A DNA stretch of 63,605 nucleotides, the filler included. It is 5 parts of 5 records of this genome, joined end to end, with 100 filler letters (N's around TTAATTAATTAA, not from the genome) between each part and the next. Parts side by side here need not be neighbours in the genome. Positions count along the whole stretch, not along the records: positions 10,292 to 22,048 come from DRR723986_9905; 4 more parts are not named here. One strand, 5' to 3'. Below are positions 10,192-45,966 of this stretch, one piece after another; positions within the stretch are counted from its first letter, which is position 1, and each line of letters starts with the position of its first letter. A program made the translations under genes and the position numbers. The notes beneath the pieces were generated by a model that worked only from the letters and a program-made list of their open reading frames with translations, was not told where the DNA came from and searched no databases.

Positions 10192-10291
10192 NNNNNNNNN
10201 NNNNNNNNNNNNNNNNNNNNNNNNNNNNNNNNNNNTTAATTAATTAANNNNNNNNNNNNNNNNNNNNNNNNNNNNNNNNNNNNNNNNNNNN
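10192..10291. other. Artificial contig spacer
   Basis: N-run, TTAATTAATTAA (stops in all frames), N-run. Confidence 0.99.
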
Positions 10292-19499: not shown

Positions 19500-20093
19500 C
19501 TAGCAACTCCCACGATGACATGCTCCAGAATTGACATTGCGTTCATCCGCTTTCCTTTCAGTGTACTCCATGATACTTCCCTTGCCACCCTGTGTTATCT
19601 CACAGCAAGTAGTAAACATATCTCTGATCTTTTTACGGCCGCGCTGGATTTTAGAACGCACAGTAACGTAGTTCATTCCGAGCTGGGCGGCAATCTCCTT
19701 TTGCGGAATGTCTTCAATCTCAGACAGCAGCATGATTGTACGATAATCCTCGGGCAGTTGATTGATATAGGGAACAACACATTCACTTAGCTGCCGCACG
19801 GCATCAGCTTCAGTTGGATAGTCGGCATCCGTCTGCATATCTTGTAAGGAGTCGGCAACATCTTCAGAGTCAAGACTTTCAGCTTGTGTCTTGCGAGTGC
19901 GGTAGTAGTCTGTAATAGTATTCCTGGCTATGGTGTAGAGCCAACTTTTAACATTTCTGACTTCGGCGACATCGTACTTCGCCAGTTTGTAGAATACATC
20001 CTGCGTCAAATCTTCCGCGTCTTCCGTGCTGTTAACGCGATTCTTAACGTAGTAAAACAAGGGGTTATACAACTGGGTGATTTGTGTTTCCAT
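19500..20093 (-). CDS. sigZ: ECF sigma factor, SigZ-like, with Cys-containing C-terminal extension
   Basis: DAEDLTQDVF, SWLYTIARN..DYYR (region 2); LPEDYR..QKEIA..KIQRGR (region 4); tail TTCCE...GACHRGSC. Confidence 0.8.
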   Translation of the reverse strand: METQITQLYNPLFYYVKNRVNSTEDAEDLTQDVFYKLAKYDVAEVRNVKSWLYTIARNTITDYYRTRKTQAESLDSEDVADSLQDMQTDADYPTEADAVRQLSECVVPYINQLPEDYRTIMLLSEIEDIPQKEIAAQLGMNYVTVRSKIQRGRKKIRDMFTTCCEITQGGKGSIMEYTERKADERNVNSGACHRGSC

Positions 20094-20221
20094 AGTGACT
20101 CAGTACACCTGGTAATTTTCGCAGCTACACGAAGTGCAGGTTGACAAATGCGCTCGATCTTTCAGTGTTCGCAACATCTACCGCTGACAATTTACACTTT
20201 TCACCGAAACATCGTCAAATC

Positions 20222-20270
20222 AAAAAAAACGCGAACAAACAGCTTCCCAGACTGGGAAACTGTTTGTGTT
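20222..20270 (-). terminator. Intrinsic terminator downstream of the Cys-rich microprotein
   Basis: Minus strand reads ACAAACAGTTTCCCA-GTC-TGGGAAGCTGTTTGT, then TCGCG and T8. Confidence 0.7.
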
Positions 20271-20308
20271 TCAAACTTGCGTGAGACTATTACTCCTGCG
20301 GGGCAGGT

Positions 20309-20446
20309 TTAACAGCAGCACTCACACTCACTTTCGGCGCAACATTCGCTCTCGCAGCAGGACGAAGTGTCTTGCATGCCGGCATCCGAAGCCGCCGTAT
20401 AAGTGTTGGCATATCCTGCAGTTGGTTTCAGTGTTGTCAGATTCAT
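20309..20446 (-). CDS. Unannotated 45-aa Cys/Glu-rich microprotein MNLTTLKPTAGYANTYTAASDAGMQDTSSCCESECCAESECECCC
   Basis: Manually translated. GGAG lies 9 nt before the ATG; 8 Cys in the last 16 aa; own promoter motif and terminator. An alternative in-frame ATG is at 20473. Confidence 0.72.
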   Translation of the reverse strand: MNLTTLKPTAGYANTYTAASDAGMQDTSSCCESECCAESECECCC

Positions 20447-20503
20447 TGTGTTGTTCTCCAGTCTTGAATTCATACGTGTAATAGTTTCCTACTCTCACCT
20501 ACT

Positions 20504-20531
20504 AAGACGTTAGCTTGTGAAAATGATGCAC
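20504..20531 (-). promoter_or_regulatory. ECF-type promoter motif, copy 1 (upstream of microprotein)
   Basis: Minus strand GTGCATCATTTTC-N9-CGTCTT, i.e. TGCATC-N15-CGTC. Confidence 0.7.
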
Positions 20532-20542
20532 TTTGCAGTTTG

Positions 20543-21859
20543 TTAACAGCAGCCGGACGCAACGCTAGTCTCTGATTCAGAAGCACAACAGCTGGTACTG
20601 ATCGTCAGTTGAGAGCTGCACACACCAGTTTCCGGCAGGTTTAACTCTACATTTTTGGCGGCTTCAATGTCACCGTCTAAATGCGCAACAATTGATCGTA
20701 CTTGCTCATAACCAGTTGCCATCAGGAATGTAGGCGCGCGCCCATAACTCTTGGATCCAACTATATAGAAGTTTTCCTCAGGGTGCCTTAGCTCTTTTTC
20801 GCCATGCGGCCGCACGGTTCCACAGCTGTGAATATTTGGGTCGATGAGCTCTGCGAGCTCAGCAACTGACTCAATCGAAGAATCAATATTTGTGCGTATT
20901 TCGCGAATCATTTCCAGATCGGGTCTTGAGCCGGTGTTACTTATGATTTCGTCGATGCTTTCAATTTGATGAGGCAGGCCATCCAACTCGCCTTCAACTC
21001 GAATTCCCTTGGGACCTGTCTCCAGCTTTAGAATATGCAAAGGAGTGAACACCTGCAACTTGCCACTGTTAACAAGTTCTTTTATCTGGACTCCCAGAGC
21101 ACCGCGAGCTTCCAGCGCGTCGTCTGCGCCGCCGCCATAGACAGTGCTCATATCACGTTTGCGCAACACCCAGTGTAATCGCGTTTGCGGATGACTTTTT
21201 TGTAGCTCGGCCAGGTCCAGCAAAACGTTAACTGCTGAGTGTCCGCTACCTACAACCAGAACACGTTTGTTTTTGTAACGCTCCAGCTGATCGTGTTTAA
21301 CATCTGGTATTCCATACACAATGTGCTCACGCGCTTCCAGCTCTCCGGCGGCGTACATTCCGCCTGAGCCGATCGGGTTGGGCTGATTCCAGGTACCGGA
21401 CGCGTCGAGTATCGCTCGTGCCTCATAGTAGCGAATCCCTTCGGGGGTGCGCACGGTTATGTTAAATGGCTTGGTGGCCCTACCCGCAGTCTTAACTTTA
21501 TCGAGCCCTTTACGACCAACCGACAGCACCTTTGTGTTTAAGTGAATATTGGGCCGAATCAAGGGATGTTCCGCCAGGGGACGAAAATACTGATCCAGCA
21601 ATTCTTGTCCGGTCGGCAAAACACCTGGGTCGGGCGCAGTCCAACTTGTCGTACTGAGTAGTTCCGCAGCGGCTTTATCGATGTTGTATTTCCATGGAGA
21701 AAACACCCTCACGTGTGCCCAGGAATTGATGTTTCCGGCAACAGTTTGCGCCATATCAAACAGGTGAAACGGAATTCCGCGTTTCGCTAAATGCGCCGCA
21801 GCGGCGAGTCCTACTGGTCCAGCACCGATTATGGCTATCGGCAAGTTTCTATTATTCAT
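20543..21859 (-). CDS. FAD/NAD(P)-dependent oxidoreductase (flavin monooxygenase-like) with Cys-rich tail
   Basis: GAGPVG (FAD), DASGTW, VGSGHSA (NAD(P)), IDPNIHSCGTVRPHG, KSYGRAPTFL, LPETGVC..SCC..GCC. Confidence 0.85.
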   Translation of the reverse strand: MNNRNLPIAIIGAGPVGLAAAAHLAKRGIPFHLFDMAQTVAGNINSWAHVRVFSPWKYNIDKAAAELLSTTSWTAPDPGVLPTGQELLDQYFRPLAEHPLIRPNIHLNTKVLSVGRKGLDKVKTAGRATKPFNITVRTPEGIRYYEARAILDASGTWNQPNPIGSGGMYAAGELEAREHIVYGIPDVKHDQLERYKNKRVLVVGSGHSAVNVLLDLAELQKSHPQTRLHWVLRKRDMSTVYGGGADDALEARGALGVQIKELVNSGKLQVFTPLHILKLETGPKGIRVEGELDGLPHQIESIDEIISNTGSRPDLEMIREIRTNIDSSIESVAELAELIDPNIHSCGTVRPHGEKELRHPEENFYIVGSKSYGRAPTFLMATGYEQVRSIVAHLDGDIEAAKNVELNLPETGVCSSQLTISTSCCASESETSVASGCC

Positions 21860-21904
21860 ATTCAGTTCGTTCCACGAATTTCAGATTTCAGTTCAGTGCC
21901 AACA

Positions 21905-21932
21905 AAGACGAAGTAGTGCGAAAATGATGCAC
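21905..21932 (-). promoter_or_regulatory. ECF-type promoter motif, copy 2 (upstream of flavoprotein)
   Basis: Minus strand GTGCATCATTTTC-N9-CGTCTT, same conserved blocks and spacing as copy 1. Confidence 0.7.
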
Positions 21933-22048
21933 AAAAACCTGATCTGGCGCACATGTTTTTATCGATTCATGATGACCGCTAGTAATCTAATCACATAATT
22001 GCTGTTCGGATGTCGTTTTGAGGCGCTGCGCTTCCCCTGCGGGTTGAG

Positions 22049-22148
22049 NNNNNNNNNNNNNNNNNNNNNNNNNNNNNNNNNNNNNNNNNNNNTTAATTAA
22101 TTAANNNNNNNNNNNNNNNNNNNNNNNNNNNNNNNNNNNNNNNNNNNN
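22049..22148. other. Artificial contig spacer
   Basis: N-run, TTAATTAATTAA, N-run. Confidence 0.99.
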
Positions 22149-22177: not shown

Positions 22178-25100
22178 CACTCTTGATGCCCTGGCGATCG
22201 AACGCGTCGTGGGTGGAGGGGTCGGTGAGGTACGCCGAGTACAGGAAAGCGAAAAACGAGTGTGGCGAGATGCGCTGCGTGGCCATGCGGAAGAGGCGCC
22301 GCGCGGCCTTGGAGGCGGGGGTGTCGCCCGCGGAGGACACGCCGGACGAGGCCGCGCGCACAAAGTCCGACTCGGCAGCAGTCGCCTTGGACCGGAACAC
22401 GCGGTGGGTCAGCGCGCTGACGGTCACCGCGGCCTGGACCTGCTCGTCGAGACCCAGCATCTCCCGAAGCGACCCCGTGTCCAGCTCCCTGTTCCCGCGC
22501 ACCTTCTCGATGTAGTAGCCGGCCATCTCCCCGTCGAGCGCGGCCTCCTTCAGCGACGCCTCGTCCTTGGCAATGTCCAGTTGCAGCTTCACGGCCTGCT
22601 GCAACTCGGCGTTCCTTCCCCCCTTGTCCTTCTGCGACGCGAGGGACTCGGAGATGCTGGTGAGGATCTTTGCCATGGCATGCCGCGCCTGCTTGTTGAG
22701 CGGGCTTCCGCTCTCGCACGAGGACTTGTCCGAGGGATCGAACAGCGCCGTGCACAGCGCCTTGGTGGAGATGTGCTCCCGGCTCACCGACGACGAGCTG
22801 GACGACGCCAAAGAGAACTCCTGCACGTCGCAACAACAACAAACAACACCAAAAAAAAAAATGGCGCTTTCAGAGCTGGACCAACAACAAAACAACAGAC
22901 CAAGGAGGACAAGTTGGCGGCGGCGGGGGGGGGGGCAGCACCTCAAAGTGTCCCATGAGGCGGTCGAGCAGGTCGCGTGACGTCTTGGGCAGCTTGTCGC
23001 GGTCGTTGTTGAACAGGGCCTGCGAGACCTCGTTGACGGAGAGGATACCGTCCCTGTTGGGGTCGAGCTGGTACATCATGCTCTGCACGCTGGCGCGCTG
23101 GTTAGGGTTGCTGGACCCAACGATCTTGAAGAACATGGCGCGGTAGAGCTGCGACAGCTTGCTGACGCGCTCCGGGTCGGTGAGGCGAACGTAGTTGGCC
23201 CCGTGCGAATCCGGCAAGGCCTGGCGGAACGCGTCGTACAAGCGGCCCCTGCTCTCCAAGGGGACGTTGGACAGGAACTTCATCACGTTGACGGGGGACG
23301 AGAACACCTTCTTGAGCAAGCCCGTGAACAGCGGGGTGAACTTGTTGGGCTTGGCGCAGTACGGAGAGTTCATCCAGTCGTAGAAAAACTTGGTGGGGTC
23401 GTTCACCACGGCCTCGGCCGCGGCCACGCGCAGCGCCGTGACGCGCCGGTCCACCTCGTCCTTCGAGATGCGGTCCGTGCCGCTGGCCAGGTTGGATATC
23501 AGCCTCCGCACGGGGAGCTCGCCGGCAAGGCGAGGGAACGGGATGTTGGGCAGCTCAAAGGCGCTCGACTGCACGTCCAGGGCATCGGAAATCTTTGCCG
23601 CGCGGTCGTCCGCCCCGCTCAGGCAGTCCGCCGACTCCTCCTTGCACTGTTCCATGAGCTCGCTATCCGTGCCTGCCCACAGGCAATCCCAGTCGCAGTC
23701 GCAGTCGCAGTCGCGGTGGGTGTGGATTGGAAAAAAACCAAACAAGGAGAAGCACGCGTCAGGCGCGCAACACGCACCTTCCGCCTCTGCACTCTTCTTG
23801 CCCTGAACACAGGCGAGCACCTTGCCCTCGCACACGCTCCGGAGGCCGGCCAACAGGCCCTTCTTCAGCTCGCCAGGGGGGACGGCGGGTCCTGCAACGA
23901 GCAATGGTCCAACCAAGACGACGCGGTCAGCACACGCGACAAACGAACCACAGCAACTACCCCCTGGCGTTGCCACACACAAACGCACCCCCTGGAAGCG
24001 GCTTGGCCTCGCGCTTGTCGAGCTCCTTTTGGAGGAGGTGGCGGAACGCCCGGAAAGCCTTGACGTCGGTGGCCACGTCCCGGCTCGGGTCGTCCGAGTC
24101 AAGCAGTTTGGACACGTCCACTCGGTCCTGGGGCAGCCCCGCGATCACGCCGCTCATGTCCGCCCTGCGCAACAGTGGGGACAGTGCCTCCACGGCGGAC
24201 TCTGCCAACAAAGCGGCGTTGGCCTTGCAGGCCAGCTCGGGGCACTCCTTGACGTAGGCGCGCTTCAGCAAGCCCAGGGCCTCCTCCGGGGACAACACCA
24301 CCTCTTTGGACCGCTCTGGCAACAACCAAAAATAAAAAAAAGGGGGGGAAGGCACGGTTCGCAAAGGGGGTGGTGCTGGTGAAAAGCAAGGGGGGAGGAA
24401 CAGGTGAACGCACTCATGTCCTGCTCGTGCGAGTGTGCCAAGCGTTGCACAAAGTGGGAAACGGCAGCAACCTCGTCCTCGACTTCGTCCTTGCCCAGCA
24501 GGGCGCGCAGTTCAACGGCGCCCAAGGAACCGCTGTCCTTGTCGAGCGCCTCCATGATGTCGTCACGCGACCACGTTTGATGGTCAAAGTTGATCAGCAT
24601 CTCGAACAGGCTCATCAGCTGCGTTGCTCTAGGGGCCGCACGCGTGTCAAACCACGCGCGCGCATTGTTCGTTTCCTGCGCACGGAGCACGAAAAGCAAA
24701 AGGGGGGAGGGGTGAGGACGAGCAAAAAAGAAACAAGCGCTGGTTTGTGTGTGGGGGGGAGGGAGAAAGCGCGCCTGTGGGCTGATTTCCCCGTCCTTGT
24801 CGCTGTCGAAGAACCTGACGATCAGGTTGAAGCTGGCGCCCTTGTCGCCCCGCACGATGGCGCGCATGAGCTTCTCGACGTTGATGCTGTACTGCGAGCC
24901 GAAGCCGGTGAGGATGGCCTCTGCGATGGACTGCGCCGCGGTGGGCATGACGGACTGCTTGGCGTTGTGGTGCACCTCGGCCACGACGTCCTGCACCTCG
25001 GACAGGGAAATGCCGCCGCTCCCGTCCTTGTCCAGCGCGGTGCTGATCTGCTGCGGCTGGACGAAGAAGCTCATCAGGGTGGAGAAGAGGGGCAGCGCGA

Positions 25101-27327
25101 CGTGCAGGGCGCCGTGCTCGTTGAACGACTTGAGCAGGTGGGTGGCAAAGTCCTTCAGCGTCACCTTTTCCGTGGGGGCGACGGCCGCCTTGAACGCGGC
25201 GTAGTCCCCCACGGCGCCTTCCTTGCACAGCCCGTCGCACAGGCGCTCCATGGTGTTGGCGCCGGCGAGCACGGTCATCGGGTCGTCCACCTCGGCGTCC
25301 CGCTCGAACTTTGCCAGGAGCGACGCGGGGAACACCTTGAGCTCCATCACGAGCGTCAGCGCCTCCCACAGCGGGTCGGGGCGGTCGGCCAGCAGGCTGG
25401 CGACCTGCCCGAACGACACCATCACCACCTCCGACGCGAGCGCCTCCCCGCACACCTCCTCCTGGGCCCTGGGGTCCGCCTCGCACTGGGAGGGGGAGCA
25501 GTACGCGTCGAGCTTCTCGCCGAGCCTCTTGCGCGCGTCGCAGCACGGCACGAAGAGCTGGTTGGAGACGTGGAGCAGGTACAGCGCGTGCTGCACGTGC
25601 GAGGGGACGGGCGTGTAGCGCTTCAGGTCGCTGATGATGTTGCCCTCGTGGTCGAGGCCGTCCCCGTAGAGGACGAGCGCGAGCTCGCGCACGGTGAGGC
25701 GCCCGTCCTGGTTGATGTCGAGGTCGTGCGCGGTGAGCTCGCCGTCCACGGCGCGCGTGAACTTGTGCTTGGAGGAGCCGATGAAGTAGCGCAGCACGTC
25801 CACGGGGACCACGTTCGGCACGACCTCGTCCTCCTTCTTGGTCGCGAACGCGCGCACGAACCTTTCCACGCTGACCACAGAGTTGAACAGCCTTCGCCAC
25901 TCGACCGCGACCGGGCCCTGGGCGGCGTCGAAGATCACGGCGATGTCCTCCAGCGTGACCCACCCGTCGCCGTCCGCGTCGAGCGCCGAACGGAGCTGCG
26001 AGCTCTCGGCCTCCAGCGCTCCGCCGAAGCCGGTGAGCGCGTGCTCGGCCGTGCGCCTGCTGACCCCCAGCTCCCTCACCACCTCAGACGCGGTGACGAT
26101 GCCCGAGTCGTCCTCGTCGAGCAGCCTGCGCAGCCTCGTGGCGGGGATGTGCGCCGCGTCCTCGCCGATCCTGCGCGCCACCTCGCGCGTGGTGACCACG
26201 CCGTCGTTGTCCGGGTCCAAGCGCTTCCGCGCGACGTCCACGTGCCCGAAGATGCGCAGCCGGCCCAGGTCGCTCTGGCGCGACACCTGGTCGTCGCGCG
26301 ACACGGTCTCGAAGAAGGAGAACGCGCTGTTCAGGTCCTTGCGCAGGCGCTGGAAGTTGGTGGAGTAGTGCGTGAACATGCACTTGCGGTCGCGGGGGCC
26401 CTTCCACGTGGGGAGCTGCGTGAAGAAGCGCATGTCCAGCTCGAGCCGCGGCGGCACGGTGAGCTCCAGCTTGCCCACCAGCCCCGACGTCCACTCGTCC
26501 ACGAAGGGGAGGTCCGACATCCACCGCGCCGCCGCGTCGACCTCCTCCTGCGACACGATCCCGTCCTTGTCCAGGTCGAACAGCTCGCTCGCGATGTTCT
26601 CCAACGAGACGTAGCCGTCCTGGTCCACGTCAAAGTGCGCCGCCAGCTCCCGCGCGTCGATGATGCCGTTGTGGTCCTGGTCCACCATGCTGAACCACCG
26701 CTTCGCCGCCTCCACCTCTTCCCGCGAGAGCTCTTCGTTGCCGTCCAGGTCGAACATGGCCATCACCTCCTGCTCGCTCAGCTCCGCGTCGCCCTCGTGG
26801 TCGAACGCGTCCATGAACTCGCTGATCTTGACCAGCCCGTCCCCGTTCTCGTTCGGGCGGTCGATCACCCGGCACACGGGCGCTGCGTGGAGGGAGAGAG
26901 GGAGGGTTTGTGGCGCGATTCGGTCGGGCAGTCACGCAATCACACAAGCACAACACGCGCACAGAGCGCAGCGCGCAGCAAAAAGCAATTCCGGGCTCAC
27001 GTGCTGCCAACGCGGTCTCTGCCTCTGCAAAGCCCTTCTTCTGCTGTTCTTCGGGCAGGGGTTCGTCCAAAGAGTCCACTGCGTTGGAAGCGGCCGTGAC
27101 GTTGAGTGCGGGGTCAAACGCAAGGGAGGGGGGGGGGAATTACTCACGTTCGTCGTACATGTACCGCACGCCCTGGAACACTGCCTCCCCGGCAAGCGAG
27201 GCCACAGCACCACTGACCACCGTTTGTGCAACATCGGACCTGTCCGGACTGAGCTTGTCAAGGCCGTGCGCGACCATCACACCCGTGCCGGCCCCGACGA
27301 GACCAGAGAGCAGAGTCTTCGACAAGC
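22178..27327 (-). CDS. Eukaryotic spliced multi-EF-hand protein, partial at both ends. Predicted exons: 27327-27148, 27078-27001, 26882-24775, 24675-24414, 24315-23989, 23891-23778, 23672-22942, 22820-22178
   Basis: Donors GTGAGT, GTGAGC, GCGCGC, GTGCGT (x3) and GTGCTG; pyrimidine/low-complexity introns ending in CAG. The junctions keep one open frame of about 1480 codons with about 13 DxDxDG-type loops. The last donor at 22177 is less certain. Confidence 0.8.
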
Positions 27328-27383: not shown

Positions 27384-27483
27384 NNNNNNNNNNNNNNNNN
27401 NNNNNNNNNNNNNNNNNNNNNNNNNNNTTAATTAATTAANNNNNNNNNNNNNNNNNNNNNNNNNNNNNNNNNNNNNNNNNNNN
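27384..27483. other. Artificial contig spacer
   Basis: N-run, TTAATTAATTAA, N-run. Confidence 0.99.
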
Positions 27484-45866: not shown

Positions 45867-45966
45867 NNNNNNNNNNNNNNNNNNNNNNNNNNNNNNNNNN
45901 NNNNNNNNNNTTAATTAATTAANNNNNNNNNNNNNNNNNNNNNNNNNNNNNNNNNNNNNNNNNNNN
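45867..45966. other. Artificial contig spacer
   Basis: N-run, TTAATTAATTAA, N-run. Confidence 0.99.

Follow-up and report, generated by a model that had tools for sequence, protein, structure and literature searches.

The locus

The window considered here, that is, the whole stretch of 63.6 kb of DNA that was analysed, consists of five contigs separated by spacers at 10192-10291, 22049-22148, 27384-27483 and 45867-45966, each spacer being made of 44 N, 12 A/T bases and 44 N. The subject of the present work is a small open reading frame (ORF) with a cysteine-rich C-terminal end that lies on the second contig (10292..22048, G+C 0.51). On the minus strand of this contig, the order is a flavoprotein gene, the small ORF, a hairpin terminator, a gene for an extracytoplasmic function (ECF) sigma factor and a histidine biosynthesis operon. 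The best database matches of the flavoprotein suggest that the host of this contig belongs to the Bacteroidota.

The small ORF and its transcription signals

The frame is open on the minus strand at 20309..20473 and encodes 54 residues followed by a stop codon when read from its preferred start, ATG 20473. The original prediction had described a microprotein of 45 residues; this shorter reading (20309..20446, minus strand) is present as it was written, begins at an internal ATG following a GGAG and is a possible alternative. The proposed frame was therefore correct and its start probably was not, ATG 20473 being located 27 nt further upstream. This preference rests on two suggestive indications, the distance of 32 nt to the promoter motif described below and the first residues of the peptide (M-N-S-x-L-E-N), which resemble those of ORFs at the related loci L121, L021 and L031. 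A start at 20446 would be 59 nt away from the -10 element of the promoter, still inside the range of the relatives. The GGAG that had been put forward as a ribosome binding site does occur 9 nt before ATG 20446. It lies inside the longer frame and deserves little weight if the host is a member of the Bacteroidota, since ribosomes of this group are reported, in the accessible text of the source, to make no use of Shine-Dalgarno pairing (PMC9976891).

The N-terminal half of the 54-residue peptide is hydrophilic and its last 17 residues contain eight cysteines, arranged as CC, CC, C and CCC and spaced by Glu, Ser and Ala; the translation contains no His. Neither a signal peptide nor a membrane segment was found and the mini-protein is predicted to be cytoplasmic. 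Among the 719 ORFs of at least 30 codons in the window, this one alone reaches a density of eight cysteines per 20 residues, the runner-up having six; when the 11.7-kb contig was simulated 200 times with a first-order Markov model, two runs contained an ORF of equal density. The two copies of the internal repeat, C-C-E-S-E and C-C-A-E-S-E, are encoded by differing synonymous codons (gag agc gaa versus gaa agt gag, with tgc and tgt alternating), so that the repetition is a pattern of the protein and not of the DNA. The small ORF and the flavoprotein gene share their last 11 bases, GCTGCTGTTAA. The identity of these endings, already noticed in the original prediction, is exact; the meaning attached to it did not hold, because both genes simply finish with C-C-stop written in identical codons.

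No family of Pfam or NCBIfam matched the peptide at E values up to 0.1. The family profile of the SmtA/BmtA metallothioneins gave no match, nor did that of ArsD, for which a peptide of 54 residues is too short. The absence of a Pfam or NCBIfam match and of His bears out the claim that the peptide is distinct from SmtA/BmtA, whereas the proposed likeness to phytochelatins is one of composition only.

The ORF is framed by its own transcription signals. Upstream, an ECF-type promoter motif (TGCATCATTTT, spacer, CGTCTTA) occupies 20496..20537 on the minus strand, with its core GCATC-N15-CGTC at 20529..20506 and a score of 36.5 bits; this motif ends 32 nt ahead of ATG 20473. Downstream, an intrinsic terminator is found at 20222..20267 (minus strand), 41 nt past the stop codon, in the form of a 15-pair hairpin (20267..20235) followed by a T run, as had been anticipated. 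The promoter claimed earlier needs to be recast: a scan of 20543..20473 with the sigma-70 consensus, which models neither Bacteroidota nor ECF promoters, detected none, and the ECF-type motif takes its place.

A class of CC mini-proteins at related loci

We collected 160 loci encoding relatives of the flavoprotein, namely the best 80 of 572 confirmed matches from genomes and the best 80 of 502 from metagenomes. Small ORFs of 25-110 residues with at least two CC dipeptides, a crude test, were counted 71 times on the strand of the flavoprotein gene and 12 times on the other strand. A SigZ-like gene follows on the same strand in 52 of these loci, and 43 of them have such a CC ORF in the interval that runs from the flavoprotein gene to 1 kb beyond the sigma factor gene, 17 times before the latter and 26 times after it. 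The other 108 loci yielded a CC ORF in 13 cases, 11 of which are clear members carried by truncated or rearranged contigs and two of which are spurious.

Two subtypes can be distinguished. In Flavobacteriia, the ORF directly follows the flavoprotein gene and its product starts with MKTR and contains GGCCG, CC and GGCC. In Cytophagia and Chitinophagia, the ORF is usually found after the sigma factor gene and encodes four CC pairs with a CCAQPxDGSxCC motif; hybrid ORFs connect the two forms. The CCAQPxDGSxCC subtype evolves under purifying selection, with a median ratio of nonsynonymous to synonymous substitution rates (dN/dS) of 0.215 in 67 usable pairs from 36 sequences, all below 1. The original prediction had called for a search of small ORFs near sigZ loci combined with dN/dS; the search yielded the 43 loci mentioned above, and the selection estimate applies to this one subtype and not to the window peptide itself. 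In the best-sampled subtype, the cysteine-rich C-terminal part is the most conserved region, with 13 invariant columns, and the N-terminal segment is moderately conserved (M-E-T-x-T-x-x-I-P-V-L-x-K-S-K). The 37 database members of the CCAQPxDGSxCC subtype are all unnamed or annotated as 'hypothetical protein' and have no Pfam domain; more generally, neither Pfam nor NCBIfam holds a family for the CC mini-proteins of these loci.

The window ORF shares the defining features of this class. It is small, lies on the strand of the cluster between the flavoprotein and SigZ-like genes, carries at least two adjacent Cys pairs in its C-terminal half and is preceded by its own copy of the promoter motif within the 24-61 nt seen in relatives. 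Many clusters also contain a major facilitator superfamily (MFS) transporter gene between the flavoprotein and sigma factor genes; it is absent from the window as well as from L016 and L017. Some loci, namely L012 (7623-7823), L136 (6254-6442) and L154 (6324-6524), have beside the CC ORF another small ORF, whose product begins like a signal peptide and contains several CC or CxxC motifs.

The original prediction also pointed to a resemblance between the end of the peptide and the tail of the flavoprotein. This resemblance turned out to be generic: over 52 pairs of ORF and tail, the cognate tail had a median rank of 0.53 among the non-cognate ones and was thus no more similar to the ORF product than these. 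A specific mimicry of the cognate tail was rejected, only six of the 52 pairs being in the top 10% and the window pair ranking at 0.16.

A promoter motif common to the clusters

The motif emerged from a search for paired short words in the 240 nt upstream of the flavoprotein genes, where the pair GCATC ... CGTC is present in 47 of 62 distinct regions. The 160 loci, 1.10 Mb in all, contain 146 copies of GCATC-N14-17-CGTC on the strand of the cluster and 14 on the opposite one; the spacer is 15 nt long at 117 of the 146 sites. The consensus in the loci, TGCATCATTTT or TGCATCaTTTT followed by variable bases and CGTCTt, has the shape of an ECF promoter. The distance from the motif to the start codon is 24-61 nt in relatives and mostly 24-50. 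Among the 146 sites, 66 are located at most 150 nt ahead of a flavoprotein gene and 36 ahead of a CC ORF; 11 of the 44 others also precede a CC ORF when its start is set 3' of the motif. Further sites outside the CC ORFs precede genes for the MFS transporter, a PatB-type C-S lyase, a rhodanese, an EgtD-like histidine methyltransferase, a cytochrome c and secreted Cys-rich proteins of no known family, and some of the remaining ones look like chance matches.

A scoring matrix was built from 103 unique sites of the related loci only, the window sites being left out. At 12 bits or more, it recognizes two places in the whole window, both on the minus strand: the site ahead of the small ORF and a second copy at 21897..21938 (core 21930..21907, 31.2 bits), 47 nt before the ATG of the flavoprotein gene. 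Of the 55 loci that have a SigZ-like gene, 44 carry the motif ahead of the flavoprotein gene, compared with 22 of the 95 that have none; ten of the 160 loci have no upstream DNA for this check, and many of the 22 are short Bacteroidota contigs. From this co-occurrence, we infer that the SigZ-like sigma factor would read the TGCATC-N15-CGTCT promoter.

Some of the genes preceded by the motif deserve a separate description. At L005 (1785-2678), from an uncultured Tenacibaculum, the motif precedes an EgtD-like histidine methyltransferase gene whose product matches Methyltransf_33 of Pfam with 268 bits; against the EgtD model, the start-truncated ORF scores 233 bits for a cutoff of 291. Genes for the PatB C-S lyase, an ArsO-type monooxygenase and the rhodanese likewise carry the motif or sit in the cluster, and together with the EgtD-like gene they hint that the regulon includes the synthesis of a thiol-histidine compound. 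The secreted proteins preceded by the motif (L001:7357-7947, L006:7141-7731, L015:7228-7735, L019:2403-2895 and L103:712-1044) have a signal peptide, 88-175 residues and Cys-rich N-terminal regions, and match no Pfam or NCBIfam family. They could be periplasmic equivalents of the CC mini-proteins, which are predicted to be cytoplasmic.

The neighbouring sigma factor and flavoprotein

The gene at 19500..20093 (minus strand) encodes a SigZ-like ECF sigma factor of 197 residues with a Cys-rich C-terminal extension (CC, then C..C). SigZ has been grouped with CorE2 in ECF238, whose members are described, in the accessible text, as lacking anti-sigma factors, as being controlled by metals through their Cys-rich ends and as not autoregulated (PMC7826278; PMC6851896). 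The window sigma factor agrees with this published description of CorE, CorE2 and SigZ as far as it was accessible (PMC7826278; PMC6851896), except that the CxC motif found in the linker of the CorE-like subclade is absent from its translation. The window ORF list contains no anti-sigma-like ORF adjoining the gene. The promoter matrix found no match of at least 12 bits in the region upstream of it (20094-20308), which fits the reported lack of autoregulation. A sigma-70-like site (TTGACG, 18 nt, TAAATT) was observed in this region at 20218..20189. For ECF238, the accessible text of PMC7826278 reports neither a conserved target promoter nor a Cys-pair mini-protein.

The flavoprotein gene (20543..21859, minus strand) encodes a 438-residue protein binding flavin adenine dinucleotide (FAD) and NAD(P), with a Pyr_redox_3 domain and a CC...CC tail. 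None of the curated NCBIfam families includes it: it scores highest with the ArsO model, at 48 bits for a cutoff of 425, and reaches 36.7 bits with the YpdA model, whose cutoff is 339.9, so that the protein is not a member of the Bdr/YpdA family. It has at least 8000 database relatives, mostly in Bacteroidota, the closest at 71% identity; in the genome and metagenome scans, full-length matches reach at most 68% identity and one partial match 74%. At least three cysteines are present in the last 45 residues of 117 of the 120 relatives listed, typically as LPxTGVC...CC...(G)CC(G), and the tails often terminate in GCC, GCCG or SCC. All 49 sequences of an alignment share Cys346 (HSCG) and Cys414 (TGVC), and 92% have the first CC pair.

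The AlphaFold model of the flavoprotein has a mean predicted local distance difference test (pLDDT) score of 75.9; residues 410-438 are modelled as disordered, the tail falling below 50. Its best structural match is the bacillithiol disulfide reductase Bdr/YpdA (E 1.9e-18, target TM-score 0.80-0.82), followed by thioredoxin-reductase-like proteins and flavin monooxygenases. Judging from this model, the fold class would suit a reductase or an oxygenase alike. The predicted complex of flavoprotein, FAD and peptide obtained a score of 0.02.

Gene context and comparison with known systems

The neighbours of the flavoprotein relatives point to thiophilic metal(loid) stress. At L028 (2061-5323, a metagenome-assembled genome of Ohtaekwangia), genes for an ArsR-type regulator, a MerTP fusion transporter (219 bits) and a member of the GDCCVxC (seleno)protein family (108 bits) are followed by the flavoprotein gene, which there occupies the slot where a mercuric reductase gene would sit. 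L034 combines ArsB, ArsR, MarR, an ArsO-like monooxygenase and a second ArsR around the flavoprotein relative, and L020 an ArsR with C-terminal CC pairs, an aquaporin-like channel and a MarR; at L041, a MarR gene lies directly upstream. The MarR proteins of L020 and L041 have an N-terminal CC pair and C-terminal Cys. In Flavobacteriia, the downstream genes include a full ArsO equivalog (487 bits for a cutoff of 425), the PatB C-S lyase and the rhodanese. Relatives from Bacillota and Proteobacteria are found in ars-type contexts with no CC ORF. On a Bacillus cereus plasmid, the context of the flavoprotein relative includes ArsR and ArsN1; the small ORF that follows it was considered as a CC mini-protein and rejected, its product not being Cys-rich. 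ArsR-family regulators encoded beside proteobacterial relatives (L020:1452-1781 and L018:1531-1869) were seen to end in two CC pairs (ENCC...CC), and the theme of the Cys pair recurs across regulator, flavoprotein tail and mini-protein.

Adjacent cysteines are classic ligands of As(III), Sb(III) and Hg(II) in ArsD, some ArsR proteins, MerA and MerT, and several families invite comparison with the mini-protein. The bacterial metallothioneins SmtA and BmtA are likewise small, cytoplasmic and very rich in cysteine, and the mini-protein, like them, would be expected to act as a sink induced by the metal that it binds. The window peptide differs from them in that it has no His and no zinc-finger-like CxC or CxxC, its cysteines being mostly adjacent pairs separated by Glu spacers, and in that its control would be exerted by an ECF sigma factor and not by an SmtB-type repressor. 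MymT is a small copper-binding metallothionein of mycobacteria. ArsD, a folded arsenic metallochaperone of about 120 residues with three vicinal Cys pairs, offers a parallel in several respects: metalloids are likely to be bound by vicinal Cys-Cys, they may be handed over to a partner encoded next to it and, around the flavoprotein relatives, the gene context is of arsenic type. The window peptide, by contrast, has 54 residues and no family match, and its neighbour is a flavoprotein and not the ArsA ATPase.

MerA carries a C-terminal Cys-Cys pair, and large thioredoxin reductases a C-terminal redox motif. The flavoprotein has in common with them a flexible tail ending in adjacent cysteines, the mini-protein being like a free-standing version of such a tail; it belongs to another group, Pyr_redox_3 with a Bdr/YpdA-like fold. 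A further likeness, for which ArsV was compared by description only, concerns ArsV, ArsW and MarR(ars), since Cys-pair MarR genes precede flavoprotein relatives and an MFS gene is often paired with the flavoprotein gene. According to review tables, ArsV oxidises methylarsenite and the product is exported by ArsW. MarR(ars), a sensor of As(III) and Sb(III) with such cysteines, is encoded upstream of arsV in Roseateles and Paenibacillus, and the descriptions of ArsV and ArsW in the accessible text make no mention of a small Cys-pair protein (bioRxiv 10.1101/2021.08.12.456183).

Other features of the window

The five contigs have, in order, a G+C content of 0.58, 0.51, 0.65, 0.54 and 0.55, a wide spread, and they may stem from more than one organism. 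The contig at 22149-27383 has 65% G+C, and both of its strands carry long ORFs that overlap; it looks unlike the adjoining bacterial contig and may be eukaryotic. It contains an 870-residue frame (24265..26877, minus strand) with repeated Asp-rich motifs resembling calcium-binding ones.

Interpretation

The frame at 20473..20309 is very probably a real gene forming its own transcription unit, as the original prediction proposed, because it has a dedicated promoter motif and a terminator and because analogous CC ORFs occur in 43 of the 52 SigZ-linked loci. We regard it as a compact, sequence-divergent member of the uncharacterised CC mini-protein class, which in Bacteroidota is associated with the CC-tailed flavoprotein, often with an MFS transporter, and with a SigZ-like sigma factor that has a Cys-rich end of its own. 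This assignment is one of analogy, resting on position, strand, promoter, terminator and architecture and not on alignment, since the window peptide has no detectable sequence homologue. Several results weigh against our reading of the locus. A word-indexed search of 5.8 billion clusters returned no candidate for the window peptide and the ESM Atlas no usable match; phmmer against 1.84 billion representatives gave a single weak match (E 1.3e-4), to a protein of 735 residues; and hhalign against a subtype profile of 25 sequences reached a probability of 6%. The likeness to other CC mini-proteins is thus limited to a short N-terminal resemblance and does not extend to alignable homology. Nine of the 52 SigZ-linked loci have no CC ORF by the crude test, although one of them, L009, does have one under a longer ORF call. 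The loose promoter pattern occurs eight times in the window for 3.9 expected and is not significant alone, for which reason the matrix was used instead, only the full matrix being specific. The SigZ models score best for the sigma factor and yet remain below their curated cutoffs (153.7 for 212 and 142.1 for 168.65). Lastly, the best fold match of the flavoprotein is a disulfide reductase, with which a redox role is as compatible as a metal role.

The metallothionein-like role suggested by the original prediction, in which metals or arsenic would be bound, is plausible. The mini-protein could be an inducible, thiolate-rich metal(loid) binder acting as a sink or chaperone, perhaps handing over to the tail of the flavoprotein. 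We give this explanation about an even chance; it is favoured because of the thiophilic metal(loid) gene contexts and because adjacent cysteines are classic ligands of such elements. Exposure to a thiophilic metal or metalloid, or to thiol-reactive stress, would activate the sigma factor through its Cys-rich end. Gene context makes As(III), Sb(III) and trivalent organoarsenicals the first candidates for the inducer, followed by Hg, Cu and Cd. The activated sigma factor would then drive the TGCATC-N15-CGTCT promoters of the flavoprotein and mini-protein genes. Serving as a buffer or sink, the mini-protein would bind the toxic species through its vicinal dithiols and may then pass this species to the similar tail of the flavoprotein for redox conversion and export. 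We infer the translation of the peptide, its binding of a metal(loid) and the choice of the latter.

The same genes could be read as a redox relay, with the flavoprotein working as a disulfide reductase on the mini-protein, its dedicated dithiol/disulfide substrate. The peptide would then serve as a small redox buffer or carry electrons, its vicinal cysteines alternating between a dithiol and a strained vicinal disulfide and the CC tail of the flavoprotein being the shuttle. The Bdr/YpdA structural matches speak for such a relay, as do the invariant Cys346 and Cys414 with CC pairs in a flexible tail, the GCC, GCCG and SCC tail ends that recall the C-terminal redox centre of large thioredoxin reductases, and the theme of thiol metabolism conveyed by the rhodanese, C-S lyase and EgtD-like methyltransferase genes that the promoter precedes in some loci. 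The flavoprotein nevertheless scores far below the cutoff of the YpdA model (36.7 bits for 339.9), monooxygenases of the same fold class match it as well, and the relatives of Bacillota and Proteobacteria reside in ars-type contexts with no CC ORF; we find this relay unlikely. A role in regulation is more improbable still. The mini-protein would there compete for the inducing metal or bind the Cys-rich end of the sigma factor, and so exert a negative feedback, a function compatible with the 26 of 43 loci where the CC ORF comes directly after the sigma factor gene and with the description, in the accessible text, of ECF238 members as devoid of anti-sigma factors and controlled through their Cys-rich ends (PMC7826278; PMC6851896). 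The sigma factor gene, having no motif, would not be autoregulated, so that any feedback would need another source. However, the ORF comes after the flavoprotein gene, and not after the sigma factor gene, in the window and in 17 loci, and the proposal has a large overlap with the buffer model.

The original prediction had itself mentioned a leader-plus-core peptide modified by the flavoprotein. Such a precursor, once matured by the flavoprotein and carried out of the cell by the MFS transporter, might yield for example a metal-binding natural product, and the neighbouring oxidoreductase, transporter and ECF sigma factor genes, together with the moderately conserved N-terminal segment of one subtype, would suit it. 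Against this stand the lack of any known maturation enzyme, leader-recognition domain or protease in the window or among 81 neighbour proteins of 12 loci, and of a transporter in the window cluster. The invariant columns of the best-sampled subtype are concentrated in the Cys-rich 'core', the opposite of what typical precursor families exhibit, and the flavoprotein itself bears such Cys pairs and is widespread in places where no such ORF exists; the idea is very unlikely. We consider it highly improbable that the frame is an accident, that is, a Cys-rich reading of an untranslated leader or spacer. The lack of a sequence homologue and the two simulated contigs of 200 with an ORF of equal Cys density would allow it, but the ORF occupies the exact slot and strand where relatives carry CC ORFs, it is flanked by the best promoter-motif match of the window, 32 nt ahead of it, and by a terminator 41 nt past its end, and the repeat of the peptide is encoded with synonymous variation.

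The metal(loid)-binder explanation can be extended into a broader and rather doubtful proposal, that of an undescribed thiol-based defence regulon of Bacteroidota governed by a SigZ-like ECF238 sigma factor sensing through its Cys-rich end. Through TGCATC-N15-CGTCT promoters, this regulon would comprise the CC-tailed flavoprotein, the MFS exporter and both cytoplasmic and secreted Cys-pair proteins, to which some lineages would add the C-S lyase, the ArsO-type monooxygenase, the rhodanese and the EgtD-like methyltransferase. The CC mini-proteins would be its dedicated carriers, bringing trivalent (organo)arsenicals, antimonite or mercury to the tail of the flavoprotein and thus acting as chaperones for an oxidoreductase and not for a pump.

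Significance

A small Cys-rich metal-handling protein placed under a metal-responsive regulator is of a known kind. What is new with respect to Pfam and NCBIfam is the class of mini-proteins, its Cys-pair architecture, its link to the flavoprotein and to ECF238, and the promoter motif; none of these, and nothing on SigZ in Bacteroidota, was found in the open-access literature searched. The locus provides a concrete case in which a promoter motif recovers a small gene overlooked by gene callers. It would also supply a candidate target promoter and regulon for ECF238/SigZ, said to be missing in the accessible text of PMC7826278. If our reading is true, the question of the inducer of SigZ-type sigma factors would become testable by a simple reporter in culturable marine flavobacteria. 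The CC-tailed flavoprotein family, with its at least 8000 relatives, would gain a partner and a physiological setting, and a widespread class of mini-proteins, until now unannotated or labelled 'hypothetical', would be added to bacterial metal(loid) handling.

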